This document shows, piece by piece, positions 3,212 through 50,767 of a stretch of 64,000 nucleotides of DNA. Position 1 is the stretch's first letter, and every line of letters begins with the position of its first letter. The stretch comes from a bacterium (GTDB lineage Bacteria > Patescibacteriota > Minisyncoccia > Phycocordibacterales > UBA6899): assembly GCA_021851895.1 (NCBI GenBank), contig JAJZQJ010000006.1, positions 13,861 through 77,860 of the forward strand, written 5' to 3'. Both the position numbers and the translations under genes were made by a program. The notes under the pieces are model-generated. The model did no database searches. It saw only the letters and a program-made list of their open reading frames with translations, and had not been told where the DNA came from.

Positions 3212-3303
3212 AGTCATGAGTCATGCGTCATGAGTCATGAGTAAAAGCAAAATACACAGCATAATACTGTGTATTTTTGAGCGCCCTCATGACTCATGAC
3301 TAG
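3212..3303. repeat. Inverted arrays of tandem heptamers (GTCATGA x4 at 3212-3243; CTCATGA x2 at 3286-3303) flanking the pilB terminator hairpin
   Basis: Seen directly in the sequence; the right-hand array overlaps the pilB stop codon. Confidence 0.6.
3250..3277 (-). terminator. Intrinsic terminator of pilB (aaatacacag / ctgtgtattt hairpin followed by a T-tract on the minus strand)
   Basis: 10-bp stem plus a U-run. Confidence 0.6.
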
Positions 3304-26078: not shown

Positions 26079-26088
26079 AATTTCATAT

Positions 26089-26565
26089 TCAACCGCCAAC
26101 TCTCGTTATGACCGGTGTCCCACGATCATCGATACTGACCATTAACCTAACCGCACTATAGCCAATGGTGAATGTCGTCGATGCAGTTGCTCCCGAGAGC
26201 GGCGCGAATTCTACACTCCGCGGCACGCTTGAAGGATCGATCCAAGAGACACCAACGGGGAGCGTCTTCGTTTCAGTCGAAAATGGTTCAGCAGCATAAT
26301 CTCGAGTACCTGTCGCGTAGAATTCCCACGATGCGCTCGCCGGCAATGCCCGCACTCCCCAGGTCATTCCCCTATCTCCGGCGATCGCTCTTCCTCTTGC
26401 GGCTTCGATATCCGCAACAAATGACTGCATTGCACTACCCGCAGCAACTTCAATGATCGATGACCGGAAATACATGATTCCCGCTGCGCTGAGCACAGTA
26501 AGTACTGCCAGTGTTATCAACACCTCCAATATAGTGAACGCTCGGTTGTCTCTTGTGGTTTTCAT
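26089..26565 (-). CDS. Pseudopilin
   Basis: Start at MKTTRDNRAFTILEVLITLAVL: canonical prepilin N-terminus. Confidence 0.7.
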   Translation of the reverse strand: MKTTRDNRAFTILEVLITLAVLTVLSAAGIMYFRSSIIEVAAGSAMQSFVADIEAARGRAIAGDRGMTWGVRALPASASWEFYATGTRDYAAEPFSTETKTLPVGVSWIDPSSVPRSVEFAPLSGATASTTFTIGYSAVRLMVSIDDRGTPVITRVGG

Positions 26566-27223: not shown

Positions 27224-28435
27224 CTAAGATACTTTCGTCATAAGCTGATAGATCGGCAGGAGTATACTCATCGCGATCAAACCGACGACGACACCCATAA
27301 CAAGGAGAAGTAGCGGTTCGAGCAGTGTGGTCATGTTTCGAAGGAGATAATCCACTTCGTCATCATAGAAATCAGAAACTTCAACCAAGATATCTCCGAG
27401 CTTGCCGGTCTCCTCACCCACTCGCGTGAGTCCAACAACAATTCCAGGAAAAAGCTCTGGATGCTTTTCGAGTTCTCCCGAAAGCGGTGCGCCACCCATT
27501 ACTGCCTGGCGCGCTTCGCGTGTTGCGCGTTCCATTGCACGATGACCTACACTTCCTGCGGTCGTCTCAAGTGCTTCCATCATGGGAATTCCTGCAACAA
27601 GCAAATTACCCAGCGTACGGGTGAAGCGCACAAGTGCAACACCATGGACAACAGTCCTTGCAATCGGTACGCGTTCAAGTGCGAGCGCAAAGAGTGCCCT
27701 ACCTTTTTCCGCTTTGCGAAACCAATAGACGATACCGCCGATACAGAAGAGGAATAATCCATCGAGCCACAGGCTGTATGAAAAGCTATTCGATAGTGCA
27801 AGGATGATGCGGGTGAGTAGTGGAAGCGCGACACCCGATTGCGCGAAGGCTCCAGAAAGTCTCGGGAGTACGAAAATGAGCAACAAGAGAATGACTGCAC
27901 CTGAACCGATGACAAGAATGAGCGGATACACGAGTGCACCCTTCACACGCTGCCGTAAACCGAAATCACGCTTCAGGTACTCTGCGATGAGTGCAAGCGT
28001 CTTCCCAAGCGTTCCCGAAAGTTCACCAGACTGAAGAAGGCCAATAAATGCGGGATTGAAATACTGTTTATACGGGGTGAATGCTTGGGACAATGATGCA
28101 CCACCACGCACCGACGCTTCAACACCTGCGATCATCGATTTCATCGCGGGGCGCTTATTGTCTTTTGAGAGTAGTGAAAGTGCGCCAAGCACAGTAACTC
28201 CGGCCTGCAAAGCGATTCCAAAATTTCGTATGAAAAAGAGAATATCTGCCGCTGCCGGCGCACGCTTTGAAAAACGGCGAAACGGCGTTTCGCCCTCATG
28301 CATCAGAGAAAGTTCCACGGGTGTTATCCCTCGCTGCATGAGTAGAGTAACGGCATGCTCGCGCGTTGCACCCTCGATGCTCCCCTCTACGTGTGCACCC
28401 TTTTTGCTTATTGCTTTGTAGACATAGACTGGCAT
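27224..28435 (-). CDS. pilC: PilC / GspF-family platform protein, paralog 2
   Basis: 403 aa; two GspF repeats; immediately downstream of the second pilB. Confidence 0.85.
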   Translation of the reverse strand: MPVYVYKAISKKGAHVEGSIEGATREHAVTLLMQRGITPVELSLMHEGETPFRRFSKRAPAAADILFFIRNFGIALQAGVTVLGALSLLSKDNKRPAMKSMIAGVEASVRGGASLSQAFTPYKQYFNPAFIGLLQSGELSGTLGKTLALIAEYLKRDFGLRQRVKGALVYPLILVIGSGAVILLLLIFVLPRLSGAFAQSGVALPLLTRIILALSNSFSYSLWLDGLFLFCIGGIVYWFRKAEKGRALFALALERVPIARTVVHGVALVRFTRTLGNLLVAGIPMMEALETTAGSVGHRAMERATREARQAVMGGAPLSGELEKHPELFPGIVVGLTRVGEETGKLGDILVEVSDFYDDEVDYLLRNMTTLLEPLLLLVMGVVVGLIAMSILLPIYQLMTKVS

Positions 28436-28449
28436 AGCTCTCTCAATGA

Positions 28450-30159
28450 TTATTCGCGTGCAACACGCAGCACCTCCTCAATAGTTGTCGATCCAAGCTC
28501 TACTTTGCGGAGCCCATCTTCGAACATCGTGACCATGCCTTCCTTTATTGCCTGCTTGCGCAGCGTCGCAGAGTCCTTCCCTTCTACAATGAGCGTGCGC
28601 ACCGCATCGCTTATTGGGAACACTTCAAAAATGCCCATCTGTCCAAGATATCCCGTCATGCTGCAAACCGAACAACCTTTTCCTTTAAACAACGTCTGTG
28701 GAAGATGCGTAATATGCTCTTCGCCTCGCTCAGCGAGCTCTGCTTTGATGCGCGCATTCGTTGCATCATCAGCGGGATACGAGGTGATACATGTCGTACA
28801 TACGCGTCGCACCAAACGCTGCGCAATGACGACATTCACCGTACTTGAGAGCAGAAACGGTTCAGCGCCCATATCGACGAGTCGCGGCACTGCGCTTGGC
28901 GCATCAGTCGTATGCAACGAAGAGAGGACGCGATGTCCGGTAAGTGCCGCATGTATTGCGATCTCTACGGTTTCATTATCGCGAATCTCTCCGATCATGA
29001 TGATGTCGGGGTTCTGTCTGAGTAATGCGCGAAGACCATTTGCGAACGTGATACCTGTCTTCGTATTCACTTGTGTTTGATTGATGCGGGGAAACTCATA
29101 TTCAACGGGATCTTCGATCGTCGTGATGTTCACATCAGGAGTATTCAGGATCTGAAGCAATGCATAGAGCGTTGTCGTTTTTCCGTGACCCGTTGGACCA
29201 GTGACCAAAATGAGTCCATGAGGTCGATGAATCTCCAACTCAAGTGCCTTGATCGCGGATTCCTCCAACCCAAGACTCGAAAGAGACAACGGCCTTGCTG
29301 ATGAGCGCAAAAGACGCATCTCAGCTTTCTCTCCGTGAAGCACCGGAATGATATTCACACGAACATCAGTTGATGCACCCTCCTCGCTCTCGAAAGCGAA
29401 ACGGCCATCCTGAGGAACACGATGTTCGTCGATTGCGAGATTTGCGAGCACCTTCACGCGCGCAACAAGTGCAGTGATGAGCTCGGGAGGCAGCTGCACG
29501 ACAACGCGCATGACTCCATCAACGCGGAAACGCACGAGCATAGCATCGGGTAGAGGCTCAAAGTGGACGTCCGATGCATTCAACGTAATTGCATGATCAA
29601 GTATTTTCGTGAGGATCGTTGTAATTGAAACAGAGGTTGCCTTTGCATTGAGCGGCTGATCAATTTCGTGCGCAGCCTCCTCCGCATGACCTTTCAGGAT
29701 CGTCTCGAAATCACCGCCGAAAGTCGGCTGATACTGCTTGAGCCCATAATGGAAGCTCGAAGAACCCATGAGCGCGGGCTCCACCCAAGCAGAAAGAAGC
29801 GCAGCAACATAGGCTCTTGTCCCATAATCGAGCGGATCAAGCATTGCAAGCTGCGCAACACCGGACTCTTTATTAAAGCCATAGAGTATGACACGTTTCG
29901 ATTTCGCGACAGCCTCAGGAAGCATCGACAATACCGCCGCATCGATTTCGATACGATGGAGATTGATGACAGGAACACCATAGTACGGCTGCAACGTCTC
30001 AAGAAAGATATCTTCGGAAATCACCCCTCTTCCGATGAGGACATCCTCGATCTCGTGGCCCGAATGCGCCGCTTCGGTCGCAGCGAGCTCAAAATCGTCT
30101 TCCGATACGAAGCCGGAATCTATGAGAAAACCACGGAGTGCCTCCTTCGTTATATGCAT
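28450..30159 (-). CDS. pilB: PilB / GspE-family assembly ATPase, paralog 2
   Basis: 569 aa; Walker A GPTGHGKTTTLY; tetra-Cys motif CTTC...CSVC; N-terminal GSPII_E_N-like domain. Confidence 0.85.
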   Translation of the reverse strand: MHITKEALRGFLIDSGFVSEDDFELAATEAAHSGHEIEDVLIGRGVISEDIFLETLQPYYGVPVINLHRIEIDAAVLSMLPEAVAKSKRVILYGFNKESGVAQLAMLDPLDYGTRAYVAALLSAWVEPALMGSSSFHYGLKQYQPTFGGDFETILKGHAEEAAHEIDQPLNAKATSVSITTILTKILDHAITLNASDVHFEPLPDAMLVRFRVDGVMRVVVQLPPELITALVARVKVLANLAIDEHRVPQDGRFAFESEEGASTDVRVNIIPVLHGEKAEMRLLRSSARPLSLSSLGLEESAIKALELEIHRPHGLILVTGPTGHGKTTTLYALLQILNTPDVNITTIEDPVEYEFPRINQTQVNTKTGITFANGLRALLRQNPDIIMIGEIRDNETVEIAIHAALTGHRVLSSLHTTDAPSAVPRLVDMGAEPFLLSSTVNVVIAQRLVRRVCTTCITSYPADDATNARIKAELAERGEEHITHLPQTLFKGKGCSVCSMTGYLGQMGIFEVFPISDAVRTLIVEGKDSATLRKQAIKEGMVTMFEDGLRKVELGSTTIEEVLRVARE

Positions 30160-30976: not shown

Positions 30977-31675
30977 TTAGAAACTCCCTTGTCCGAGAAT
31001 ACGAATATTCGTACCCACTTCAAAGAGATTGTCATTATCACCTCCATCGGACTGCATGCGATTGGTGACCTTTGTGAATTCATCGCTCTCGAGACGTGCA
31101 TCTACCTCATACGTCAATGTTGTTGAATTACATGCATAGCGATAGACGTAGTCGGAGTTTACCGGCGCGGTGAGGGTCGTCAGCTTGTTCACGGGATCAA
31201 CAGGAAGATTTGATATCGGAGACCCCGAAGTGAGTGCTTCAAAGTTCACTGGGATCCACCCAGAACCATCTACGCGCGCGAGATTTGCGAGAGTGACTTG
31301 GGCTGCGGTTGGCTGCGTCGTCACACCAGAAAGATTGATGCCCGTTATGCTCCCTGTATCAGAGGGCAAACTGTACCAGATCTTATTCCCTGTCGTCCAG
31401 CCAGATGCGCTGCGACAAAGACTATTGATAGTCGATGTTGGACTACCATCGAGATTCGGATCCGAGATCGTTGTCGTATAAACACCCATTGCAGTCTTGA
31501 GTGTGTTGAGATCGGAGATACGCTGAGAGTCACGAGATTTTCGCAATGTTTCTACCGGATTGATCACGATGATCAACATCACGGAAAGAATAGCGATGAT
31601 GGCGATCACGATGAGCAACTCGAGCAGTGTAAAACCCTCATGCTGCCTCTCTTGTTTTACAAATAGAGATTGCAT
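30977..31675 (-). CDS. pilA: Type IV (major) pilin
   Basis: Leader MQSLFVKQERQHE followed by GFTLLELLIVIAIIAIL, a textbook class III signal. Confidence 0.8.
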   Translation of the reverse strand: MQSLFVKQERQHEGFTLLELLIVIAIIAILSVMLIIVINPVETLRKSRDSQRISDLNTLKTAMGVYTTTISDPNLDGSPTSTINSLCRSASGWTTGNKIWYSLPSDTGSITGINLSGVTTQPTAAQVTLANLARVDGSGWIPVNFEALTSGSPISNLPVDPVNKLTTLTAPVNSDYVYRYACNSTTLTYEVDARLESDEFTKVTNRMQSDGGDNDNLFEVGTNIRILGQGSF

Positions 31676-35339: not shown

Positions 35340-35870
35340 TTATCTCAGTGAGGGTTTGTAGAACCCAAAATGAATATACCTACCGATACCGAGTAGCTCA
35401 CTAGCACTACTAATAAAGGACGTTGCATCGAAATCTATAATATAGAATGAGCGATGAATTAAACGAAAACCAAGAGATCTAACAAAATCACGAAAAAGTG
35501 CACGCTTTTTCCGAAGCGCCTCCGGGATATCCCAAGATATCGCCCTAAGCTTTCCATCCAGCACACGCTTGCCTATTGAGTCATGAGCAAGACGACTCAT
35601 TTTCTCCTCGTCTCCATAATAGTTTTGAAGTGCGATACCCTTCTCGGTGAGCGAAAATATTATAACCTTTTTACCATTTTTCATCGAAGTTGAACGACGA
35701 ATATAGCCTTGTCGCTCCAAAGTCACGAATGCTCTCCGTTTCTGTACGCTATTTAAAACATCTAAAGCTTCTGACCCAGCGCCCTTAAGCGCGTACCACT
35801 TTGCCCTTACTTGCCCAAGTCGAGATCGACGATCAAGACCGCTAAACAAAGCCATTAGGAAAGTTTTCAT
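35340..35870 (-). CDS. Putative transcriptional regulator: N-terminal winged-helix domain plus a C-terminal Cas2/PaaX_C-like ferredoxin-fold segment
   Basis: Start at MKTFLMALF with a GGAG RBS; LERQGYIRRS...LTEKG winged-helix-like segment; C-terminal WDIPEALRKKRALFRDFVRSLGFRLIHRSFY matches the YDV..RR.K..K.L...G.R.Q.SV pattern. Confidence 0.4.
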   Translation of the reverse strand: MKTFLMALFSGLDRRSRLGQVRAKWYALKGAGSEALDVLNSVQKRRAFVTLERQGYIRRSTSMKNGKKVIIFSLTEKGIALQNYYGDEEKMSRLAHDSIGKRVLDGKLRAISWDIPEALRKKRALFRDFVRSLGFRLIHRSFYIIDFDATSFISSASELLGIGRYIHFGFYKPSLR

Positions 35871-36063
35871 ATTTCTCCCAACACGTCCTCGAAGCTCTTC
35901 TTCGACATGGAAGTGGCCGTCGCCATGATTACCCAAACCGATAGCATGTTCAAGATCATTCATATTTGTGGAAAATAATAAAGCCACTGCATCGCTGCGT
36001 GGCATGTGTATTTACTAACTATACATCAATATATCAATAATAGAATACGATTATCCACAGAAA

Positions 36064-36095
36064 AGGACGTTTATGGCGAACGGCATAAACGTCCT
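36064..36095. promoter_or_regulatory. Perfect 12-bp inverted repeat AGGACGTTTATG-N8-CATAAACGTCCT, directly after a perfect DnaA-box-like TTATCCACA at 36051-36059
   Basis: Seen in the sequence. Confidence 0.4.
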
Positions 36096-36243: not shown

Positions 36244-39200
36244 TTACGGAGCAGTGCTTGTAGCGTCACCATCCCCCGCAACAATATCAACGGATGTGCT
36301 TGTGCCGATCTCTTCAACTATGACATCCGGCGTAGTTGTCGAGTTGTCACTGCTTAAATTCTCTATCACAACATTATCCGCTGAAGGCGCTTCATCTGAG
36401 CTCTCTGGACTCGACACATTCGACATGGAAGGTTCCGAAGTACTTGGCATTGACCATGGCACGTATCCCGCATCACCCTCATAATTTCCAACAAGATAGG
36501 GTCGTTCGAGTACACACGATCCGATGGATGAAATGATGCCTGGACAGACCCCTCTTTCATAATCGAATATTTCTATATCTTCCTCAGGAAGACCTGGCCT
36601 GGTCGTGTAGAAGAAGCGTATCGTGCCTGACGATTCTATATCCTCAGGTAGAACAAAACCTATGTACTCTGCCCTCGTCTCAACGCCACCATTTTGCGAA
36701 ACTAGTGGCACTGCTTGCGCAGTAAGTCCGTCGCTCGCGATCAAGACATATTCTCGTGCAGGTATACTGAGCACAGGAAACGGAATACGCACACCTGCGA
36801 TACTCACGTCAGTCAATTTCAAATCGATCGCAGCAGAGCCCATCATATTCGAGACTTTGAACCAAGATGACTCCCCTGCTGCGCCAATATAATATTCGGT
36901 GATCTGCATACGCCCATCGAGTGGATTCCAGCCTCCAGATGTTACAGGGAAAAGTTCCGGCCTTGGCGCCCACCCATGACCGCATGTCGCATTCAATTCT
37001 TCATCAGTGATGCCATCATAATAGAGCGGCCCGTCATAGCAGAAAACGCTTTCTGTTGTCGTCGCACTACCATCTTCACCGCTCGCCGTCGACGTCGCGG
37101 TCGACGTTCCTGTGACAATCCCTCCACCATCGATTGGTGGTGTACTCGTTGACGATGGAGGTCCTTCCTCTCCAGGAGTCGATGTCGCGGTCGATGTCCC
37201 AGCGACTAACCCGCCATTATCAATCGGAGGTGTACTCGTCGATGATCCTGACCCATCCTCCACTGGTGTCGAAGTCGCAGTGCTCGTACTGGATGAATCT
37301 ATTAGTGATAACGACTCCGTCGTTGTCGCGGACGATCCACTGCCTGAATCTTCCGGTGGCGGCAACTCTTCAGTGCTTGATGCGGAGCCATCCGCCGGAG
37401 TCGTTGTGCCGACAGCATCTCCTTGCGAATCCTCAACAGGAGGGACATCATCGGTGCTCGTTGCTGTTGAGGTGCTCATCTCGTCATCGATCTCAGGTGT
37501 TGTCGTGCTCTCGACGGGCGGAATCGCCTCGGGAGGAGGATCGATAAATTCAGGAGGTAATCCATAATATTCATTGCAATCCACAAAATCTCGCGCTGCG
37601 TAATAGACGTGACAATCCTCTGCATCCTGCATTGCAAGCACTCCGAATGGATCATCAGGCCCTCCCTGCTGCCCTTCATCTTGCCCCGTTGGAGGAATTG
37701 CTGGGCCACAGTCGACGCCGATGCGATACACTTTTCCTCCAAGCCATTCGAGCAGCATCGTCCGATCACGATAGGTGCTACATGAAGGGATCTCTGCTGG
37801 AGAAGTGCCATCATCGAAATACGTAAGGAAGAGTTTTCCGGACTCGAGGCGCATACGCGACGCTATAGTATTCACACGCACTACACCACCACGGACGATA
37901 ACTGGAGCAGTAAGATACGTATAGGGGTCACGAACGAATACCCCACCCTCATGCACGACGATATGCGGCACCGTCTCGATCAAAGGCCGATTCGACTCGG
38001 AAGTATAATTTGCGAACTGTTTATTCGTCGATATACTTCCCGTCTTCCAGATCCCCAATGTTCCGTAGACATGTATGACCGTCTGCGCGTTCCCTCCAAA
38101 AATCGCAGCATCAGGAAGTGCAAGCACCCACGATCGATCGTTGCCAACCATCCATTCTTCACCACTTTGAACAGTGACCTCACCAGTTACATAGACGGCA
38201 TCACTACCTCGCGGAATGATCTCATTAGGATATACACCCGCAATCCTCCTCCCCTCATAAATATTGTATTTCCAAGACTGATTCGCATAACCAATAGTCG
38301 ACGCATTTTCATATTGCGTTGGCGTATCGAGCGCACGCGCGCGCACCCAATAGCTCGGATTATCGCCAGGCGCGATAGTGATCATACGCTCACATGACCG
38401 ACGCAATGCATATGCATTTGCGCAATATGCACCGCCATAAGGCGCACGATCGACCAAGCTATGATTGGCAAGTATGACGAATTCACCACTTGAACGCGAG
38501 CGCGACGAAAGCCCCTCAATGAAACGATATGGTGCCTCCGACTGAAGTATCGCATGTGATTTCGTTCCATCACTACTGAGTACAACAAACCTTTTCGGTG
38601 GTATACCAGTGAGTGGGAATGGATAATGCTCGCCGTCTTCGATGAATTCCGCATTACGCATATCGAGCCATTTGTCGGTAGTATTCATGAGCTCAACCCA
38701 TGATGACTCACCATCTTTCCCGATATAATACTCAGTGATGAGCAGTTGCCCCGAAGTGGGTATTATCGAGGCACTCTCTTGGCTCTGCGGAAGATTATCT
38801 TCAATCGTGAATCCTCCTTGCTCCACTATGATCGGCGTCGTCGAAGCTTCTTCGAGTGCATGTGCACGCGCCGTCGGCAATGACCCACTTCGCCTTATGA
38901 CGGATGAAGCGATGACTTGTTTCTCTAATGTACTCTCCGCCTTAAGCATGCGCTTCAACAATGCGATACGCTCAAGTAATGCGGTCTTGTACTCCGCATC
39001 AGGATCGACCGCCGGAGCTGCTTTCAGCGGCTTCTTCTTGGGCAATGTCGTCTCTTTGACGACAGGCGGTGCATCTTGCTGCACAACAGGCAAGACTACT
39101 GCGGGCTTGAAACCAGGATAAGTGACTGGTGCCTCTTTCTTGAGGTCGGGAAGATCGCGTGTGCCCTTTAATTCCTCCATAGGTTGTGGAGCTGAAGAAA

Positions 39201-40101
39201 AAACTGACCCCGAGAGAACACTCATGAACTGCGCGGCCCCTTTGAAAATACTGGCACCCACTCCTGCAATGGGATCAGCGATCGCAAAGTATGCCGCAGC
39301 GAGCGCGTGCGCAACCCCCGTATCGGGAGCGGGCACACAAGGCAAGCTTGCATCTTTCCCCGTATCAACCTCAAGCGTCGCCAGCTCAGCCTTGATATCC
39401 TTCATCATTTGCGCACTCCCGTAATGGAGGTACGTATCGACGAAATTATGCCCGAGCGCATCTTTTGATGAACCTATTTCTGGAAAATCAACATTCGGTG
39501 GTGCTATAGCACCCACGCTCCCGACGAGGCCAGCAATGACCTTGTCGTTTTTTGAGAGAATATATCGTGCATTCGGAGCGGACATCTGTGCAGGCGAGGC
39601 GACGTTATACATCGTCATACTACTCGTCCCGATACCCCCTTCGCGGGTCGCGAGCCAATCGTAGATCGTATTAGCATAAAAATTACCCTGCGAGTGCGGC
39701 ACAAAGAGAATCCTCCCCTCTTTAACTTCATCATGCATCGCGCTGATCATCTCTTCTGCATCATAATCAAGCCCCATCGCATGTTGTGCCTGATCGAAGG
39801 TCTTCTGAATGACTGAAGTTAGACTGTCCCCAATGCCTGCGATATGAGATGGGTTGAAAGCATAATATGTTTTCACAATTTCACCCTGGAAAGTATCTGG
39901 GACAATTTTCTTTAACTCTCTTGCGCCATGAGCAGCATCTGATTCACTATTTAATACCCCATTAATATAAATTACTGAGTACCCATTTTTAAAACACTTA
40001 TTAGTCACTTCTGTTACGCCGAAGAAATATCCATAACCCGGGCTTGGAAAAACTAACACGACCAAAGTGGTCGCCAAAATTACTATTCTCTTCATAATCA
40101 C
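36244..40101 (-). CDS. Giant secreted protein (1285 aa): lipase-like alpha/beta-hydrolase domain, two lamin-tail (LTD) domains, and Ser/Thr/Gly-rich repeats
   Basis: Signal peptide; VPHSQGN nucleophile-elbow-like motif; two ITEYYIG..GESSW...L..W.L....E..FPFP segments matching the LTD pattern; repeated SSTSTPPIDxGGxVxGTSTATST units. Confidence 0.7.
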   Translation of the reverse strand: MIMKRIVILATTLVVLVFPSPGYGYFFGVTEVTNKCFKNGYSVIYINGVLNSESDAAHGARELKKIVPDTFQGEIVKTYYAFNPSHIAGIGDSLTSVIQKTFDQAQHAMGLDYDAEEMISAMHDEVKEGRILFVPHSQGNFYANTIYDWLATREGGIGTSSMTMYNVASPAQMSAPNARYILSKNDKVIAGLVGSVGAIAPPNVDFPEIGSSKDALGHNFVDTYLHYGSAQMMKDIKAELATLEVDTGKDASLPCVPAPDTGVAHALAAAYFAIADPIAGVGASIFKGAAQFMSVLSGSVFSSAPQPMEELKGTRDLPDLKKEAPVTYPGFKPAVVLPVVQQDAPPVVKETTLPKKKPLKAAPAVDPDAEYKTALLERIALLKRMLKAESTLEKQVIASSVIRRSGSLPTARAHALEEASTTPIIVEQGGFTIEDNLPQSQESASIIPTSGQLLITEYYIGKDGESSWVELMNTTDKWLDMRNAEFIEDGEHYPFPLTGIPPKRFVVLSSDGTKSHAILQSEAPYRFIEGLSSRSRSSGEFVILANHSLVDRAPYGGAYCANAYALRRSCERMITIAPGDNPSYWVRARALDTPTQYENASTIGYANQSWKYNIYEGRRIAGVYPNEIIPRGSDAVYVTGEVTVQSGEEWMVGNDRSWVLALPDAAIFGGNAQTVIHVYGTLGIWKTGSISTNKQFANYTSESNRPLIETVPHIVVHEGGVFVRDPYTYLTAPVIVRGGVVRVNTIASRMRLESGKLFLTYFDDGTSPAEIPSCSTYRDRTMLLEWLGGKVYRIGVDCGPAIPPTGQDEGQQGGPDDPFGVLAMQDAEDCHVYYAARDFVDCNEYYGLPPEFIDPPPEAIPPVESTTTPEIDDEMSTSTATSTDDVPPVEDSQGDAVGTTTPADGSASSTEELPPPEDSGSGSSATTTESLSLIDSSSTSTATSTPVEDGSGSSTSTPPIDNGGLVAGTSTATSTPGEEGPPSSTSTPPIDGGGIVTGTSTATSTASGEDGSATTTESVFCYDGPLYYDGITDEELNATCGHGWAPRPELFPVTSGGWNPLDGRMQITEYYIGAAGESSWFKVSNMMGSAAIDLKLTDVSIAGVRIPFPVLSIPAREYVLIASDGLTAQAVPLVSQNGGVETRAEYIGFVLPEDIESSGTIRFFYTTRPGLPEEDIEIFDYERGVCPGIISSIGSCVLERPYLVGNYEGDAGYVPWSMPSTSEPSMSNVSSPESSDEAPSADNVVIENLSSDNSTTTPDVIVEEIGTSTSVDIVAGDGDATSTAP

Positions 40102-40147: not shown

Positions 40148-40786
40148 CTACCTAATTTCAGGGAATATATCACACTGTGCACCATCGATATCACCAAAAC
40201 TCGAGATATTCTTCAGCGCTCCGACATAAGCGGCATTTCTTTGGGGTGTATTGATAAGTTCACCAATCAAACCTTTTTCAGCGCTATCTACAAGCGCTAA
40301 ATTTTGTGCACTATTTGGTAAATCATAATATATTTTTTCACAACCCGTTGCCCTCATTTCCTCCCCAAGCGCTGCCTTGAGTGTCTCCTTACTTTCCGTA
40401 TGGGTCATCACCATCGCCTCAGCGCGTGCCCACTGCATCCACACCGCGCGCTCCTTCTGGTCAGTATAGTGATCGAATATCCAGCGCTCAACATCATCAC
40501 GAACATAATTATGATTCACGTCGATTCCAGCGACCGTCGCATCATTCTCTGCCTTATTCGGCTCCGGCGGAAGTTTTGATCCATCCACATCAGCGAGTGT
40601 CAGACGAATCTCATGAATGGCCGCTACTTTTTTCGCGGTATCATCCGCATGGAGCAACTGCCCTGTGCGCACGATAACGAGCAAGCCGTAGACGACGAGA
40701 GCGCCAATAACCACTCTTTTTATTACTTTTACAACACGAGAGCGGTGCCGAGGCACCGCAGTTTGCATTTCTTCTGCATTCATCAT
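40148..40786 (-). CDS. Membrane-anchored hypothetical protein
   Basis: 212 aa with an N-terminal TM; no recognised domain. Confidence 0.45.
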   Translation of the reverse strand: MMNAEEMQTAVPRHRSRVVKVIKRVVIGALVVYGLLVIVRTGQLLHADDTAKKVAAIHEIRLTLADVDGSKLPPEPNKAENDATVAGIDVNHNYVRDDVERWIFDHYTDQKERAVWMQWARAEAMVMTHTESKETLKAALGEEMRATGCEKIYYDLPNSAQNLALVDSAEKGLIGELINTPQRNAAYVGALKNISSFGDIDGAQCDIFPEIR

Positions 40787-42156: not shown

Positions 42157-42786
42157 TTAGAAAAGATTTAACTTATTCAATACAACAAGATGAGGGTAGT
42201 CTACAATATCGCGGACAAACTTATCATACACCCCGAATCGATATTCAAACTCCGCAGACTCCATGAGCGCATACGAGAGCTCCTTCCCTACTTCTGCCTC
42301 AAGCTTCTTGAGTTCGCGCTCGATCGCTGCACGCTTCAGTTTATCACCAACGATGAGTACATCGACACGAGAGGTCGGCTCATCGATGAAGATACCTGCA
42401 ACAATGATGAGTTTGAAGTGTCCACACCCCTTGAAGCGGGCTGCGATGTCTTCCTTGCCCATTGCGATCTCGGTGACGAGACCACGAAGTGAAGCAAGGA
42501 ATGGGAATGATGGATCGAGGCCATATCCTGTGAACTTCTTTTTCTTGAGTTCGGTCTCTGCGCTCACCTTGGCCCGTGATGACTTTGGCACGAGCTTCAC
42601 CGCCTCGCGCTCTTTAACAAGTGCAATATCACGGAGAAGACGTACCTCTTTGCGTGCAACATCGATCGAGGTTCGTGCGCGTTGAGCGACGTCGGCGATC
42701 TCGTAGATCTCTTCACTGTTCATGAGGAAAAGGCGCATGACGCGGACGCGTGCCGCTGAGCCGAATAGTTTCGCGAGGGTATCCAT
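42157..42786 (-). CDS. Conserved hypothetical protein with a possible N-terminal HTH
   Basis: 209 aa from MDTLAKLFG; no catalytic motif recognised. Confidence 0.45.
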   Translation of the reverse strand: MDTLAKLFGSAARVRVMRLFLMNSEEIYEIADVAQRARTSIDVARKEVRLLRDIALVKEREAVKLVPKSSRAKVSAETELKKKKFTGYGLDPSFPFLASLRGLVTEIAMGKEDIAARFKGCGHFKLIIVAGIFIDEPTSRVDVLIVGDKLKRAAIERELKKLEAEVGKELSYALMESAEFEYRFGVYDKFVRDIVDYPHLVVLNKLNLF

Positions 42787-42840
42787 AATACGGTTAGTGT
42801 AGCATAGACGGGGCCAAAAATCACCCCGAAAACACGCAAA

Positions 42841-42862
42841 AACCACGCCAGGCGTGGTTTTT
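42841..42862. terminator. Terminator of paralog A (aaccacgcc a ggcgtggtt plus T-run)
   Basis: Seen in the sequence. Confidence 0.6.
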
Positions 42863-42975
42863 GCACAAAAGACAAGACTATGCTCAGGCCACCAGGAAGT
42901 GCCTGTAGACGGCGAAAAAATGCGAAACGCGAGCACCGGACGGCGCTCGCGTTTCTACACAATCATTCCTTTTAA

Positions 42976-45027
42976 TTAATTGGTGATGAAGAGGTTTGAA
43001 GACTGGAAGTCGCCTTCTGGAGTACCCGCGATCTGTGCGGTCGCTGCTCCATAGGCACCACTCGTCGTATAGCCGACAGAGTTTACCTGGAGACGATACT
43101 GGCCTGCTGCAGTCGGATCATAGGTCACGACGACCTCGATCGTTGCTGACTCACCATCTGCGATACGGACGTAATTACCATCACGTGTACCACCGGAGAT
43201 GAGGGCTACAGACTTCGTTGTCGCACCTGACGACACGACGTTGCCATTTCCATCCTCCATGCTGTACACAACACCCGTTGTGCTCGTTGCTGAATCGATG
43301 GTGAATGGCACCCAGATATCATTACCTGATGCAGTCACACGAATCTGCATGTGGTACTCACCATAACTTGCTGATGGGTTATATGAGTTTTGCACTGCAT
43401 TCGCATATGAGCTTACGCGAGCGATATTGAGGCCCGTCGAGCGGAAAGTCTGCGTGCGACCTGTTGCTGAACCTGAGAATGCAGTGATGTTATCACCATT
43501 CTGATCCTGTGCATTTACCGAGGCGTAAGAGACGGTCATCGAGCTTCCTTCTGGGAATGATGCAGTGCCGATCTTCAACATGCGCGCAACGACATCGAAG
43601 GTTGCAGTGTTGTCCTGATCGATCGTTGCGAGATCATCGAGGTTAAATGTGAGTACACCACCTGAGACCGCTGTTGCGTCTGCGGTTGCAAGCACATTGC
43701 CATCACGAAGGAGCTGAAACTCGCTTGCCTGATTTGCGATCGCCGCACCCGAACTTGAAACATTCACGCGAACCTGATCGAACTGTGTACGTGTTCCCTC
43801 TGGCTTCAAGCGGAACTCGAGCATCGTCACCTTGTCGCCTGAACCACTATCAGAGACGAATACCGTGCGCTCATCAGGATTGTTTGCACCAGTATAGATG
43901 CGCACCTTTACGTCGCCTGAGGTTGAGAGCTTGTCGACGTATACTCCTGAATTTGAGACGCTTGAACCATCAGAGAAGGTGTAGCCGGTTGCATCGGTGA
44001 AACGGATGCTATCAGCACGCACAGTCCATGGACTTCCGCTTCCGGCAATTGCTGAATCGATGTATGGGACACCAATAGCGCGCACGTAGAATACCGTCTG
44101 GCCAGATGAGCCCATGCGTACGATCGCATTATCGAGCGCGACTGCCTTCGAGTACTGACCGGAGCCATCGCGATAGAAATCACTTGCGGAGACACGTCCG
44201 ACCTGTGAACCATTAGCATAGATCTCGAACGCGTCGAAGTAGCGCGTGAGGTTGTTGTTATTTGAACCGTTGTAATTCAAAGTGAGGCGAAGATTCGTCA
44301 CACGGACATCGGACCCGTCTGCGCGTACCTTGAAACCAAGTACGTACTTCCCTGATCCCGTCACAACGTTGTCTTCAACATCCGCAGAATAGCTATTTAC
44401 GGAAATCGAGCCTGCGCTGCCATTCAATCCTGAGTTGTTTGTATATCCCCCGTTGTTGTAGTTCGACGATGTGTTTGTATTCGTCACGACCGTCGTCGGA
44501 GTAACTGAAGATGGGATATCAGTGCTTGCACCAAGAACGACACCACCTGTTGGGACGCAGAGCTGATGCAATTGTGCGCGAGTCGCTACACCAACGATAC
44601 CTGTACCGTAGGAAAGACCCATAGGCGCAAGCACATCGGCTGCATACTTATTCTGAAAACGAATGACTGCAGCACGAGTCAATGGACCAAAATAGTCCGT
44701 CTCTGCACCGGGAGCACCAACTCCGTAGCCTGCAACCTGCGTATCTGCAGACTGATTAAGGACACGCTGGAGCTCGACGACCTCGGGGTCATACATGCCA
44801 AGCGAAAGCTCTTTGGTGAATGTGCACGATGTGCCAACATTTGCATTTGCATTATTGTAGGCGATCACTGCATTCCCACCATTCTGCGAAAGCTGCAACT
44901 GCTGCAACTGTGCAATGAGGGCGTTGATCTGTGCTTGTAATTCGTCAGTAGTCACCGCAGAAGCCATTGCGGGTACCAAGAGTACAAGCATGAGCAACCC
45001 GGCGAATTTTGTAATCATATTTTTCAT
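42976..45027 (-). CDS. Surface protein paralog A: signal peptide, peptidoglycan-binding (PG_binding_1-like) domain, beta-rich core, conserved FQSSNLFITN C-terminus
   Basis: Start at MKNMITKF. TTDELQAQINALIAQLQQ helix. Cys-bracketed G(M)xDxEVxxLQxxLN...YFGPxTxAAVIxFQNKY PG-binding domain. Shares its termini with paralogs B and C. Confidence 0.75.
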   Translation of the reverse strand: MKNMITKFAGLLMLVLLVPAMASAVTTDELQAQINALIAQLQQLQLSQNGGNAVIAYNNANANVGTSCTFTKELSLGMYDPEVVELQRVLNQSADTQVAGYGVGAPGAETDYFGPLTRAAVIRFQNKYAADVLAPMGLSYGTGIVGVATRAQLHQLCVPTGGVVLGASTDIPSSVTPTTVVTNTNTSSNYNNGGYTNNSGLNGSAGSISVNSYSADVEDNVVTGSGKYVLGFKVRADGSDVRVTNLRLTLNYNGSNNNNLTRYFDAFEIYANGSQVGRVSASDFYRDGSGQYSKAVALDNAIVRMGSSGQTVFYVRAIGVPYIDSAIAGSGSPWTVRADSIRFTDATGYTFSDGSSVSNSGVYVDKLSTSGDVKVRIYTGANNPDERTVFVSDSGSGDKVTMLEFRLKPEGTRTQFDQVRVNVSSSGAAIANQASEFQLLRDGNVLATADATAVSGGVLTFNLDDLATIDQDNTATFDVVARMLKIGTASFPEGSSMTVSYASVNAQDQNGDNITAFSGSATGRTQTFRSTGLNIARVSSYANAVQNSYNPSASYGEYHMQIRVTASGNDIWVPFTIDSATSTTGVVYSMEDGNGNVVSSGATTKSVALISGGTRDGNYVRIADGESATIEVVVTYDPTAAGQYRLQVNSVGYTTSGAYGAATAQIAGTPEGDFQSSNLFITN

Positions 45028-45183
45028 AATATTTTGAGTTTTTTGACACCGAAGGCCAACAGGCCAAGGGCGCAAATGGGTGTTTGGTAATCATGGTTCT
45101 ACCACAACCCCAACTGAGAAACAAGCAAAGCACGGCCCTGTGACAAGGTTTTTACCTTGACACCACGATTCCCTCCCTGCCTT

Positions 45184-45437: not shown

Positions 45438-47438
45438 TTAATTCGTAATGAAGAGATTCGATGTCTGGAAGTCAGTGTCAGGAGTTGCTGCGATCGATGC
45501 AGTTGCTGCACCAGTTGCGCCAGCGGTTGTGTATCCGACTGAGCCAACCTGCAAACGGAACTGACCAGCTGCAGCAGCGTCGTAAGTCACAACGATATCA
45601 AGTGTTGCGGACTCACCATCTGCGATCTTCACATAGTTACCATCGCGGATTCCGCCAGAGACGAGTGCGACCGAAGCCGTAGTCGTACCTGTGGTTGATG
45701 CGATCGTTGCACCATTTGAGTCCTCGATCGTGTATGAGATACCGGTCGTTGAACTTGCATTATCAATCGTAAATGGTACCCAGATATCATCACCAGAAGC
45801 GGTGACCTTTACCTGCATGTCGAATGTACCGAAGCTTGCTGATGGCGTGTTCGAGTTCGTTGTCGCACTTGCCGTCGAGCTTACCTTGGTTACATTAAGA
45901 CCAGTTGCACGGAAGGTCTGTGTCTTTCCGGTTGCTGAACCATAGAACTTCGATGTTGGGATCACATCACCGTTGACGTCCTGAGCGTTGATACCATAGG
46001 TTGCGATCGTAACTGATGAGGTTGCACCCTGCGGGAACGTCGCAGTAGCGATCTTCTGCATCTTACCCACGATCTGGTAGGTGACCGTATCATCCTGGTT
46101 CACATACTCGAGATTATCGAGATTGAATGTTGCAAGACCAGTTGCTGCGGTAAACTCTGAAGTATTTGTTGGATCAACCGTTGCAAGGGTTGAACCATTC
46201 TTCACGAGCTGGAACTCGCTGAACATCTGGCTCGTCGAGGTTGAGCTGGTTGTCGTTGCTTTCAACTGATCAAATGAGATCTTCGTACCCTCTGCCTTGA
46301 TGCGGAACTCGTTCATGACGACCTTGTCGCCTGAATTGTCCTGTGAAACAAAGACGGTGCGCTCGTCTGGATTTGCTGAGCTTGATGAGAAGCGAACCTT
46401 GACATCAGATGATGAAGCGAGCTTACTGACCGTAATACCTGAATAGGTCACACCACTTGCTGTTGAAGAAAGAGTGACGCCAGTTGCATCCTGGTAACGA
46501 ATTTCGTTAAGGGTTGCGGTCCAAAGTGCTGCAAGATTTGCAGTATCAATGGTCTGCGCACCAATAGCCTTCACTGCGAAGGTGACCTGGTTTGCAGTAC
46601 CCATGCGTACGATCGTATTTGCGTTAAGCGCAATGGTCTTTGAGTAGTGACCAGCAGAATCACGGTTGAAATCACCCGCCATTGCTGAACCTACCTTTGA
46701 ACCATTCGCATAAATATCAAGTTCCTGGAAATAGCGATCGAGGTAGTTCGAGACACTTGAATTGTCCGTCATTGCAAGCGAAATCTTTACATGAGAGACA
46801 TTGATATCTGAACCATCTGCCTTGACCTTAAAGCCGAGAACGGTCTGCGCTGCACCAGTGACGACGTTCGTGTCGTTATCTGAGCTGTAGTTGCTGATAT
46901 CTGCTGAACCAGCACCACCATTAAGACCAGAAACACTTGTACCCGTGGTACCCGTCGTGCCGGTTGTTCCGGTCGTTGTACCTGGAGTGGTTGTCGTAGG
47001 TACTGCTGCACAAAGTGCATTGATCTTTGCGCGAGTCATTGCCCCGACCAAGCCGCTACCCATTGAGAGACCCACTGGAGCGAGCACCTCAGATGCGTAC
47101 TTGTTCTGGAACTTGATGACTGCAGCCTTTGTTGCGGGTCCGAAGTACATCGTCTCATTCCCCATTGAGCCAGGACCTGATGCTGCGACCTCGGTCGCCA
47201 TGTCCTGATTGAGGAACTTCTGGAGATTCATCACCTCCGCGTCCGACATACCCTGCTTGAGTGTCTTGGTGAAGACCGATGAGCAAGATGCGGTTGCTGC
47301 CGGCTTTGCTGCTGCGAGTTGTGCCATAAGCGCATTGATCTGCGCCTGGAGCTCCTCGATGGTCGCTGCTGATGCTACCACTGGGAGGAGCACCGAAGCG
47401 AGGGCAAGGCCGACGAACTTTGTATACTTATTCGTCAT
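45438..47438 (-). CDS. Surface protein paralog B (666 aa): same architecture, C-terminus TDFQTSNLFITN
   Basis: N-terminus MTNKYTKFVGLALASVLLPVVASAATIEELQAQINALMAQL; PG-binding domain; Thr/Gly linker. Confidence 0.75.
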   Translation of the reverse strand: MTNKYTKFVGLALASVLLPVVASAATIEELQAQINALMAQLAAAKPAATASCSSVFTKTLKQGMSDAEVMNLQKFLNQDMATEVAASGPGSMGNETMYFGPATKAAVIKFQNKYASEVLAPVGLSMGSGLVGAMTRAKINALCAAVPTTTTPGTTTGTTGTTGTTGTSVSGLNGGAGSADISNYSSDNDTNVVTGAAQTVLGFKVKADGSDINVSHVKISLAMTDNSSVSNYLDRYFQELDIYANGSKVGSAMAGDFNRDSAGHYSKTIALNANTIVRMGTANQVTFAVKAIGAQTIDTANLAALWTATLNEIRYQDATGVTLSSTASGVTYSGITVSKLASSSDVKVRFSSSSANPDERTVFVSQDNSGDKVVMNEFRIKAEGTKISFDQLKATTTSSTSTSQMFSEFQLVKNGSTLATVDPTNTSEFTAATGLATFNLDNLEYVNQDDTVTYQIVGKMQKIATATFPQGATSSVTIATYGINAQDVNGDVIPTSKFYGSATGKTQTFRATGLNVTKVSSTASATTNSNTPSASFGTFDMQVKVTASGDDIWVPFTIDNASSTTGISYTIEDSNGATIASTTGTTTASVALVSGGIRDGNYVKIADGESATLDIVVTYDAAAAGQFRLQVGSVGYTTAGATGAATASIAATPDTDFQTSNLFITN

Positions 47439-48347: not shown

Positions 48348-50318
48348 TTAGTTCGTGATGAAGAGGTTTGATGACTGGAAGTCTGACTCTGGTGCTGCAG
48401 TGATCGAGAGGCTTGCTCCGGTTGCTGCATCAGTGTTGTTGTAACCAACTGAACCGATCTGGAGGCGGTACTGGCCAGCTGCTGATGGGTCGTAAGTTAC
48501 GACAACCTCGAGCGTTGCTGACTCACCGTCTGCGATCTTCACCGTGTTGCCATCGCGAGTACCACCTGAAATGAGTGCTACTGATGCGGTGTTCGTACCT
48601 GCTGCAGTTACGTCAGTGTTGTTTGAATCCTCAACAGTGAAACGTACACCTGCTGCGCCGGTTGAGCTTGCGGTGAATGGAACCCATACATCATTGCCTG
48701 ATGCGGTTACCTTAACATCGTAGGTGAAGGTACCGAAGCTTGCTGATGGTGTGTTTGAGTTCGTGGTTGCAGCTACATTTGAGCTGACCTTGGTTACGTT
48801 AAGACCAGTTGCAAGGAAGGTCTGCTGGCGGCCATCTGCTGAGCCATAGAACTTCGATGATGGGATAACGTCGCCGTTTACGTCCTGAGCGTTGATGCTC
48901 TTGAACGAGATGGTTGCGGTCTGGCCTGCAACGAAGGTTGCGGTACCGATCTTCTGCATCTTTGCAACGACCTGGAAGGTCTGGGTCTCGTCCTGGTTAA
49001 CAGTTACGAGGTTGTCGATGTTGAAGTATGCAACACCTGCTGAAAGCTCTGAGCTTGAAGTGTCGACAGTGTCGATGACTGAACCATTCTGGACGAGCTG
49101 GAGCTCGCTGATCATGTTTGAAGTCGTCGTTGAAGTCGTAACGTTCATCTGGAGCTGGTCAAATGACACCTTGGTGCCCTCTGCCTTTACCTTGAACTCA
49201 TTCATGACAACCTTGTCGCCTGATGAAGTATCAGAAACGAAGTTGGTCTTCACGTCTGGGTTTGCAGCACCTGCTGAGAAGCGAACCTTAACATCAGATG
49301 ATGTTGAGAGCTTGTTAACAGCAACGCCGTTGATCGTGTAGGTCGTTGTGTCTGAGAGCACTGCACCGGTTGCATCTGCGAAGCGGATGTTACCCTCGGT
49401 GATGTCCCACTTAGCACCTGCGTTATCAGAATCAATCGATGAAGCACCGACTGCCTTGATGGTGAAGGTGGTCTGGTTTGAAGCACCCATCTTCACGATA
49501 ACCTTGTTGTCAAGAGCGATCGTCTTTGAGTACTGACCAGCTGAATCACGGTTGAAGTCGCTTGCATTTGCTGAAGCAACCTTTGAACCATTTGCGTATA
49601 CGTCGATCCTATCGAAGTAACGGTTAAGGTAGTTTGAAGCATTTGGGTATGCTGATGCGTTGCTTGCCTCGAATGCGAGAGACACCTTGAGGTGTGAAAC
49701 TGCAACGTCAGAACCGTCTGCCTTTACCTTGAATCCTGCAACAGTCTGTGCAACACCCGTCACGACATTCGTGTCGTTGTCTGAAGTGTAGCTGGTGACC
49801 GTTACTGAACCTGCCGTACCATTAAGACCAGTTACTGGAGCTGGAGTTGTGGTTGGGGTGGTTGATGGAGTAGAAACAACTGCACCTGAGCAGAGAGCAT
49901 TGATCTTTGCGCGGGTTGATGCACCTACGAAACCGGTACCTGCTGAGAGGCCTGCTGGAGCGAGCACCTCAGATGCGTACTTGTTCTGGAACTTGATGAC
50001 TGCAGCCTTCGTTGCTGGGCCGAAGTACATCGTTTCGTTGCCCTTTGAACCAACGCCTGATGCTGCTACCTGAGTATCAACATCTGAGTTAAGTGCCTTC
50101 TGGAGGTCCATAACCTCAGCGTCTGACATACCTGCCTTGAGTGACTTTGAGAGTACTACTGAGCAAGATGCTGTTGTTGCCGGCTTTGCTGCTGCGAGCT
50201 GAGCCATGAGCGCATTGATCTGCGCCTGGAGCTCCTCGATGGTCGCTGCTGATGCTACTACTGGGAGGAGCACTGCTGCGAGAGCAAGACCGACGAACTT
50301 TGAATTCTTATTCGTCAT
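48348..50318 (-). CDS. Surface protein paralog C (about 656 aa from MTNKNSKF): same architecture, C-terminus SDFQSSNLFITN
   Basis: N-terminus MTNKNSKFVGLALAAVLLPVVASAATIEELQAQINALMAQLAAAKPA; PG-binding domain; the 37-codon N-terminal ORF extension is rejected. Confidence 0.75.
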   Translation of the reverse strand: MTNKNSKFVGLALAAVLLPVVASAATIEELQAQINALMAQLAAAKPATTASCSVVLSKSLKAGMSDAEVMDLQKALNSDVDTQVAASGVGSKGNETMYFGPATKAAVIKFQNKYASEVLAPAGLSAGTGFVGASTRAKINALCSGAVVSTPSTTPTTTPAPVTGLNGTAGSVTVTSYTSDNDTNVVTGVAQTVAGFKVKADGSDVAVSHLKVSLAFEASNASAYPNASNYLNRYFDRIDVYANGSKVASANASDFNRDSAGQYSKTIALDNKVIVKMGASNQTTFTIKAVGASSIDSDNAGAKWDITEGNIRFADATGAVLSDTTTYTINGVAVNKLSTSSDVKVRFSAGAANPDVKTNFVSDTSSGDKVVMNEFKVKAEGTKVSFDQLQMNVTTSTTTSNMISELQLVQNGSVIDTVDTSSSELSAGVAYFNIDNLVTVNQDETQTFQVVAKMQKIGTATFVAGQTATISFKSINAQDVNGDVIPSSKFYGSADGRQQTFLATGLNVTKVSSNVAATTNSNTPSASFGTFTYDVKVTASGNDVWVPFTASSTGAAGVRFTVEDSNNTDVTAAGTNTASVALISGGTRDGNTVKIADGESATLEVVVTYDPSAAGQYRLQIGSVGYNNTDAATGASLSITAAPESDFQSSNLFITN

Positions 50319-50767
50319 AGTGAATGAAATGAAATAATGAAACTTGTTCCGTTTTCGCTCGGACGCTATACGAATGAAACATTCGTATGTCGTACCCTCG
50401 CTCGACGGAATAAATTTTGTATCTGTCATTAACGACTGATACGGTAAACGATTACTTAACAGTAAAAGTTTTATAAATCACGGTTTGAAGTTTGTGCATA
50501 CTATCCCCTCCGCAAGAAGTGACAATACACAGCAGGCCCGTACACTCCGCTAGGATCCGCAAGCGTTCCTAATTTTGTATACGCACCAATCATCTACCAG
50601 CAATGTCCTGTGAGAAGTTTGAGTGGCTGCTCGCCCCTCTCCGTTCACTACCAACAGACGACTTGCTTCGCTTTCTTCGATGGAAAACGCGATGTCACCA
50701 CCACGCCTTTCATTGCAGAAACTTTTCGCACAAACATACAAAGACGAAAAACTGCTCACGAAAGCTG
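50319..50767. repeat. Second copy of the duplicated upstream non-coding block, with a perfect leader hairpin atacgaatg-aaa-cattcgtat at 50368-50388
   Basis: Offset of 2880-2887 nt from copy B, the same as the gene-start offset. Confidence 0.7.

Follow-up and report, generated by a model that had tools for sequence, protein, structure and literature searches.

How bacteria of the Patescibacteria, or candidate phyla radiation (CPR), acquire the membrane lipids that they cannot make is a standing question, and the locus described here is a concrete candidate for part of the answer. It lies in a stretch of DNA of 64,000 nt (the window; all window coordinates are counted within 1-64000) and is composed of two genes on the minus strand, one encoding a giant surface protein headed by a hydrolase domain and the other, immediately upstream, a membrane-anchored partner of 212 amino acids (aa). 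Is the giant an enzyme, on what would it act, and what is the partner for? The enzyme class of the N-terminal domain is well supported and its gene is almost always accompanied by that of the partner. On balance we lean, with modest confidence, towards an active cell-surface ester hydrolase that the partner would tether, fold or restrain.

The giant protein and its export

The reading frame 36244..40101 is uninterrupted. The GTG at 40101 only opens the mechanical open reading frame (ORF); translation probably begins two codons further on, at the ATG at 40095, which gives a product that opens with MKRIV and counts 1283 aa. This product is identical to a public protein (P0001) present in NCBI, ENA and Logan assemblies, whose sequence is the same on both of the two contigs carrying it.

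The N-terminus has the classical layout of a signal peptide, assigned by inspection of the n, h and c regions and of the small residues at -3/-1: MKR, a 13-residue hydrophobic run (IVILATTLVVLVF) and PSPGYG, with a hydropathy maximum of 1.8 across residues 4-22. In homologues, AXA-type cleavage motifs (SFA, SLA, TLA or ALA) occupy the corresponding position. The giant contains 12 cysteines, every one in one of six local pairs, as expected of an extracytoplasmic protein. The secreted giant proposed by a first-pass annotation of this DNA is thus borne out by the intact frame, the signal peptide and the six Cys pairs, and predicted export via Sec is well supported by these sequence features.

The N-terminal domain has the invariant residues and the predicted fold of an alpha/beta-hydrolase

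The same annotation pointed to the motif VPHSQGN as a lipase-type nucleophile elbow. In an alignment of 58 sequences of the domain, with relatives down to 22% identity, eleven columns are invariant. They include S110, D159 and H191 in domain numbering, i.e. Ser135, Asp184 and His216 of the full protein; Q111, G112, F114, Y115 and N117 (domain numbering) are likewise invariant. The N-G pair that follows the first strand (N45-G46 in the giant, the canonical position of the oxyanion loop) and the two cysteines that flank the domain (Cys34 and Cys253) are nearly so. Within the elbow, relatives have A or P at -2 from the serine and always Gly at +2, and the block HSQGNFYAN is invariant in an alignment of the giant with its full-length relatives. 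Strong purifying selection on the catalytic residues of the hydrolase is established.

The domain was modelled with AlphaFold2 from the 58-sequence alignment (predicted local distance difference test, pLDDT, 89; predicted template-modelling score, pTM, 0.89), and the model was read at the level of topology and confidence. Strands and helices alternate. Ser110 is placed between strand 101-109 and helix 112-125, which corresponds to a nucleophile elbow, the Asp after strand 152-154 and the His before the last (C-terminal) helix. A minimal alpha/beta-hydrolase is canonically laid out in this way; the structure prediction that had been proposed as a check thus gives, as far as a model can, Ser, Asp and His in the expected order. 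Searched against the PDB with Foldseek, the model has only five matches with E<=1e-3 (best E=3.7e-4), each a hydrolase of alpha/beta fold: the A. fulgidus lipase (two entries), a cutinase-like enzyme, Legionella RavL and a yeast serine hydrolase. The next matches are cutinases, B. subtilis LipA and two Gram-positive "cell-surface hydrolases" (3fle, 3ds8). When the profile of the domain is compared by hhalign with B. subtilis LipA (the sequence used being identical to 1i6w), VAHSQGN falls on VAHSMGG and Ser135 on Ser77 (E=3e-4). The lipase-type elbow therefore holds, on the strand-turn-helix of the model, on the invariant Ser-Asp-His and on the alignment with LipA Ser77.

The families in which the domain had been sought are another matter. 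With hidden Markov models (HMMs) of Lipase_2, DUF676 and PGAP1, as with those of Lipase_3, Abhydrolase_6 and Cutinase, the window protein has no match at E<=10. Matches far under the Pfam cutoffs appear in relatives: Lipase_3 (E=0.019), DUF676 (found in relatives only, 0.08-0.19), Abhydrolase_6 (0.014-0.17), and further weak ones to LIDHydrolase and Tle3 (E=0.05), with a few unrelated families mixed in. The PADLOC models leave the domain unmatched. The hydrolase domain is an uncatalogued family within the alpha/beta-hydrolase superfamily, outside Lipase_2, DUF676 and PGAP1.

A membrane-anchored partner gene lies upstream of the hydrolase gene

The most informative feature of the locus is the partner gene, which is absent from the first-pass annotation. 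Genomic context was analyzed on 80 fetched loci of the hydrolase family. A homologue of the partner is encoded directly upstream of the hydrolase gene in 75 of them according to BLAST and in 77 according to HMM search, and in two of the remaining three a fragment of it is cut by the end of the contig. The pairing is thus near-invariant (79 of 80 loci). The two genes are separated by a median of 8 bp and frequently overlap; in the window, a consensus scan of the 52-bp gap between them reveals no terminator-like site. At one of the related loci (L009, 4353-5135) an IS200-like Y1 transposase homologue is found just upstream of the partner gene.

The partner is laid out as basic residues, one N-terminal transmembrane helix (N-in/C-out), an acidic loop and a helical bundle. 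The loop is conserved at D66, D89, N91, N93, D97, D98 and E100, and a Cys pair (C149, C205) is conserved as well. Residues 89-100 (40487-40522) read D-x-N-x-N-(G/Y)-(I/V)-R-D-D-V-E, with the spacing of an EF-hand at positions 1, 3, 5, 9 and 12; the Arg at position 8 departs from the EF-hand consensus, as does the Tyr that the window protein has at position 6. Judged by this pattern, the loop may be a Ca2+ site.

The AlphaFold2 model of the partner is all-helical (pLDDT 87.5). Foldseek finds no match for it in the PDB, the best (E=1.6) being unrelated, and the protein has no Pfam or PDB sequence match. We rejected the partner as a Lif foldase, since Lipase_chap is absent among 19 partner homologues at E<=10 and the fold has no match. 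As a known immunity protein it is likewise without support, either from sequence (PADLOC gives none) or from fold. It could be an analogue of a lipase foldase or of an immunity protein.

The hydrolase heads a large family of surface proteins

A search with the whole protein returns eight full-length relatives, which have only the ~260 N-terminal residues in common with the giant; P0002, P0003 and P0004 are closer and have more of its sequence in common. A domain-profile search of a word-indexed database adds 169 further proteins, and an exhaustive domain-profile search of 1.84 billion representatives gives 3057 clusters at E<=1e-3, 493 of them at E<=1e-30 (clusters defined at 50% identity). 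In the great majority the domain occupies about residues 25-250 of proteins of 500-1600 aa, the usual architecture being a signal peptide, the hydrolase, then variable surface domains. These C-terminal domains switch between lineages (LTD, beta-helix, Ig-like, PKD, LVIVD, fn3). A few complete members have little beyond the hydrolase (289-414 aa), which makes the hydrolase the constant core of the family. In the window the giant is its only member.

All of the 80 fetched loci come from metagenome-assembled genomes of Patescibacteria, mostly Parcubacteria/Paceibacterota (Nomura-, Yonath-, Harrison-, Azam-, Zambryski- and Vogelbacteria). A literature search found no description of this hydrolase family. 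It is apparently a large, unannotated, Patescibacteria-centred family of exported serine hydrolases, and the domain merits an HMM and a name of its own.

One distant relative of the hydrolase, P0113 (L081 4001-5071; ~25-32% identity), retains the catalytic residues and carries a C-terminal KTSC fusion. Its gene is located on a 381-kb contig with ParE/RelE-type toxin genes, helix-turn-helix regulators and a SIR2-domain giant, a conflict-island-like context.

The remainder of the giant protein

The features of the locus are listed in Table 1. The conserved segment that follows the hydrolase has a maximal Kyte-Doolittle hydropathy of 1.5 in the giant and of 0.7-1.9 among the 77 locus-encoded members scored. 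We rejected it as a transmembrane helix: the hydropathy is mostly sub-threshold and a conserved Asp-Pro stands in the middle of the segment.

Table 1. Features of the two-gene locus in window coordinates.
Feature	Coordinates	Strand	Residues	Remarks
Giant gene	36244..40095	minus	1-1283	ATG at 40095; 1283 aa + stop codon
Signal peptide	40030..40095	minus	1-22	
Minimal alpha/beta-hydrolase domain	39334..40020	minus	26-254	
Catalytic candidate Ser135	39691-39693	minus	135	motif VPHSQGN, residues 132-138
Catalytic candidate Asp184	39544-39546	minus	184	conservation and model position
Catalytic candidate His216	39448-39450	minus	216	conservation and model position
Post-domain conserved segment, moderately hydrophobic	39196..39333	minus	255-300	family motif HK..G....ADP.A
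A/P/L/E/K-rich linker	38761..39195	minus	301-445	composition; no family match
LTD-like domain 1	38416..38760	minus	446-560	Pfam LTD (PF00932) match
Middle domain, cysteine-paired	37546..38427	minus	557-850	
S/T/P/G/E/D-rich low-complexity spacer	37051..37545	minus	851-1015	
Two diverged 30-aa tandem units	37066..37245	minus	951-980, 981-1010	Tandem Repeats Finder
LTD-like domain 2	36508..36924	minus	1058-1196	paralogue of domain 1
S/D/T/E-rich C-terminal tail	36247..36507	minus	1197-1283	
Terminator-like hairpin	36064..36095	minus		12-bp stem, ~150 bp past the giant stop; consensus scan only
Partner gene	40148..40786	minus		212 aa; immediately upstream of the giant, 52 bp before its ATG

Two lamin-tail domains (LTDs) had been announced at about residues 470 and 1090. 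The segments are real, but ITEYYIG...GESSW begins at residues 453 and 1064, i.e. ~20-25 residues earlier. They are paralogous (BLASTP E=7e-16, 38% identity over 72 aa), and two copies are arranged in the same way in P0002, P0003 and P0004. Their assignment stands in part: residues 447-542 match Pfam LTD with E=6.2e-8 and 33.4 bits, missing the gathering cutoff (34.3) by 0.9 bit (30.1 bits when the domain is taken as an isolated segment), while the second copy has no direct Pfam match even at E<=10. When the entire giant and its separate segments are scanned with Pfam and NCBIfam, this sub-cutoff LTD match is the only one obtained. A profile of the LTD-like domains compared with the canonical-LTD profile of other family members gives a weak match (E=8.9e-5, probability 60%, 50 columns); phmmer with the canonical LTD segments of family members finds nothing in the giant, and iteration from its LTD-like domains does not reach canonical LTDs. 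From these sequence comparisons, both domains are probably divergent LTDs.

The middle domain has no Pfam or PDB sequence match, and its homology is limited to P0002 and the L001 protein, and partly to P0003 and P0004. It is followed by the spacer, made up of T (20%), S (19%), P (13%) and G (11%) among others. For this region the first-pass annotation had described a run of about 120 aa of near-identical, slippage-prone repeats. The two strings that it quoted are exact (residues 951-980 and 981-1003), but the repeat spans 60 aa, inside a ~170-aa stretch rich in S, T, P, G, E and D, and its full units agree at only 21 of 30 aa and 61 of 90 nt. Tandem Repeats Finder reports a period of 90 bp, 2.1 copies and 74% match. 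The many synonymous differences between the units indicate an old duplication. Slippage or phase variation at this 90-bp repeat is unlikely and was rejected, given the copy number, the match and a longest exact in-register run of 11 nt. In the C-terminal tail no sorting signal or transmembrane segment is seen.

The window and the wider neighbourhood

The G+C content of the window is ~50%, and its genes encode type IV pilus/type II secretion system (T2SS) components, SecDF, FtsK, TatD and several very large unannotated proteins, which together fit a Patescibacteria (CPR) genome. No tRNA, tmRNA or Rfam family is found in the 64 kb (ARAGORN; Rfam at gathering thresholds). The cumulative GC skew declines almost steadily along the window, and the large genes are nearly all on the minus strand.

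At many of the related loci, the pair is followed by rplJ (38 loci) and rplL (18 loci), for example at L009 10553-11601 and L016 6610-7641, and in about 20 loci a small mechanosensitive-channel-like gene comes next; genes for large PG_binding_1 proteins stand on the upstream side. This conserved core-genome position suggests vertical inheritance and a housekeeping-type role. None of the 18 window genes compared is a homologue of rplJ, rplL or the channel-like gene.

Upstream of the pair, the window contains three tandem paralogues of ~670-700 aa on the minus strand (42976-45075, 45438-47438 and 48348-50429). All three are built alike, with a signal peptide followed by a coiled-coil-like stretch of short length (ELQAQINAL...), PG_binding_1, a long T/S/N-rich body and a shared C-terminus (...SSNLFITN); they are possibly wall-bound surface-layer proteins. 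Homologues of these paralogues are found upstream of the pair in 15-35 other Patescibacteria loci. A 259-aa protein without Pfam match (42157-42936, minus) has homologues (38-45% identity) in 26 related loci. There they are encoded downstream of rplJ-rplL and not upstream of the pair, which indicates that the window genome is rearranged relative to most relatives.

Downstream of the giant, past the hairpin, a 221-aa protein (35340-36005, minus) has a PaaX central Cas2-like domain (E=2.5e-7) and no homologue across the 80 related loci. Further on, a second giant, of 1361 aa (22014-26099, minus), is matched by Pfam only close to the C-terminus, with a purple-acid-phosphatase N-terminal (fn3-like) domain. 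It is encoded just downstream of T2SSF (27224-28435), T2SSE (28450-30159) and a prepilin-type N_methyl protein (30977-31675). The window has two T2SSE/PilB-type ATPase genes with MshEN (3300-5027 and 28450-30159, minus), suggesting two pilus systems. A functional link between the hydrolase giant and the type IV pilus genes was rejected, as the 80 related loci contain no pilus-gene homologues.

What the pair may do

We propose that the two genes form one module, in a bacterium of the Patescibacteria (Paceibacteria-type). The partner would be held in the cell membrane by its single N-terminal helix, with the acidic loop and the helical bundle turned outward. The giant would leave the cell through Sec, and its compact, lid-less alpha/beta-hydrolase, placed directly behind the signal peptide, would act outside as a serine ester hydrolase, on a substrate that is most likely of lipid type (lipase, esterase or phospholipase A-like activity). 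At the membrane the partner would dock, fold or restrain this enzyme. The remaining ~1,000 residues, i.e. the two LTD-like Ig-type domains, the middle domain and the S/T-rich spacers, probably form a stalk and a binding module, a lineage-variable part that could place the enzyme at the bacterium's own surface or at a neighbouring cell.

Three things make a lipid substrate attractive: the nearest structures are lid-less lipases and cutinases, the elbow is of the AHSxG/GHSQG lipase type, and lipid synthesis in CPR bacteria is incomplete, with lysolipids enriched in their cells (PMC7242380). Probst et al. (PMC7242380) consider phospholipase A as a possible source of these lysolipids and name no lipase or hydrolase gene. 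The first-pass annotation had placed its giant in an organism unable to make its own lipids, which agrees with an affiliation to the Patescibacteria/CPR, reported to be without complete lipid synthesis (PMC7242380). The lipid substrate and the host-directed role that it added are, like catalytic activity itself and the role of the partner, what we infer from these features. A more specific version, in which the pair is a host-lipid harvesting device of Paceibacteria, with a surface phospholipase A-type enzyme under partner control at the symbiont membrane, seems doubtful to us. If this is true, the enzyme would cleave acyl chains from the host or neighbour membrane reached via the C-terminal domains, or free lysolipids from it, which would explain both the lipid supply of lipid-auxotrophic cells and their lysolipid enrichment. 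If the enzyme is merely an ordinary envelope esterase, a fold and a likely enzyme class are still assigned to ~3,000 clusters of "hypothetical" giant surface proteins.

Several observations weigh against a surface ester hydrolase acting with its partner. The structural likeness to solved hydrolases is moderate, with template-modelling (TM) scores of 0.3-0.5 (maximum 0.49) and root-mean-square deviations of 6-9 A. Neither Pfam nor NCBIfam gives a significant match to the domain, and PDB sequence searches with the single protein and with 9-sequence and 58-sequence profiles give nothing significant, the best match being a lipase elbow at E=0.55. Neither sequence nor model specifies the substrate; among the fold matches, cutinases and cell-surface hydrolases without an assigned substrate are just as near. 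The partner has no recognisable fold, which makes its role a guess, and no membrane or wall anchor is identified on the giant. Finally, since the pair stands beside rplJ-rplL elsewhere, the wider synteny is partly mere conserved gene order.

There are three other explanations. The pair might be a toxin and its immunity protein, the secreted lipase-type domain harming the membranes of other cells and the membrane-anchored partner being its cognate inhibitor, as in Tle-Tli or TslA-TsaI. The strict adjacency in 79 of 80 loci would be expected, as would a partner ectodomain in the same compartment as the enzyme; the weak Tle3 match in one distant hydrolase relative and the KTSC fusion of another, whose island also contains a SIR2 gene and ParE/RelE toxin genes, point the same way. 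But a core position by rplJ-rplL in many genomes is unlike that of mobile polymorphic effector-immunity cassettes, the gene is single-copy in the window, export relies on an ordinary Sec signal, and the partner matches no known immunity fold, nor any PADLOC model. We regard this explanation as rather unlikely. The enzyme could instead act on envelope polymers of the bacterium's own wall or of a host wall, as an esterase or de-O-acylase whose substrate would be peptidoglycan, a teichoic-acid-like polymer or a surface glycan, with the LTD-like and S/T-rich parts spanning the wall; this is possible without being probable. It agrees with the cutinases and the Gram-positive cell-surface hydrolases 3fle and 3ds8 among the closest folds, and with the genes for large PG_binding_1 proteins that precede the pair in the window and at 15-35 other loci. 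That neighbourhood is, however, also conserved core gene order, in which the PG-binding linkage may be incidental; Pfam scans find no carbohydrate- or peptidoglycan-binding domain in the giant, and the elbow A/P-H-S-Q-G resembles AHSMG of LipA and GHSQG of the lipase 4hs9.

The hydrolase fold could also be a non-catalytic docking module, binding the partner so as to anchor a long adhesin that acts through its variable C-terminal domains. This would suit a giant without any other anchor, a partner that is membrane-anchored and always there, and adhesin-type C-terminal domains that differ from lineage to lineage. Pseudo-enzymes, however, usually lose their catalytic residues, and here the 58 sequences, down to 22% identity, keep Ser, Asp, His, the elbow glycine and the NG loop with no or hardly any exception; some complete members, moreover, are without the long C-terminal part. 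The invariance of the triad residues makes this the weakest of the alternatives, and we hold it to be very improbable.

Comparison with known systems

Like LipA (1i6w/1t2n), the Fusarium cutinase (1cus) and the A. fulgidus lipase (2zyr), the domain of the giant has a compact alpha/beta core of ~200 aa. Its family has the elbow A/P-H-S-Q-G where LipA has AHSMG, and Ser, Asp and His come in a similar order and at similar distances, 49 + 32 residues in the giant and 56 + 23 in LipA, whose triad is Ser77-Asp133-His156. It differs from these minimal lipases and cutinases by an identity of 11-15%, a TM score of at most 0.49 and the lack of any HMM-level relationship, by NG instead of HG in the loop of the first strand, and by the disulfide-like Cys pair around the domain. 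Unlike them, it follows a signal peptide, opens very long surface proteins and comes with a membrane partner.

A secreted lipase-type enzyme encoded beside a helical membrane-anchored protein recalls the Lif operons of Pseudomonas, Burkholderia and Acinetobacter. Lif is a helical protein of ~340 aa with a single N-terminal membrane helix and a body that is extracytoplasmic like its lipase, and the PDB holds a lipase-foldase complex. The partner, with its 212 aa, has neither a Lipase_chap match at E<=10 nor a fold match in the PDB (best E=1.6), so that membership in the Lif family is not supported and an analogy, at most, may be drawn.

The combination of an Ig-type LTD with an exported hydrolase is shared with LTD-fused bacterial extracellular hydrolases. 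Pfam describes bacterial LTDs as occurring with membrane-associated hydrolases, namely metallo-beta-lactamase, synaptojanin-type and calcineurin-like phosphoesterases; alpha/beta-hydrolases are not known to be among them. Many members of the present family carry canonical LTDs, with scores up to 195 bits; compared with these, the two LTD-like domains of the giant are divergent, one at 33.4 bits and the other without direct match.

Tle-Tli and TslA-TsaI of the type VI and type VII secretion systems likewise place a membrane-acting serine hydrolase of lipase fold beside a small envelope-located partner. In contrast to them, the present pair is expected to use Sec, is single-copy in the window and has a core position by rplJ-rplL in many genomes, and neither the hydrolase nor the partner has a significant sequence or fold match to Tle or Tli.

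Secreted alpha/beta-hydrolases on modular surface proteins are already known as a kind. What is new is a near-invariant partner without fold match in the PDB, together with the domain family itself, which has no HMM, ~3,000 clusters and all its fetched loci in Patescibacteria, and its fixed placement at the N-terminus.

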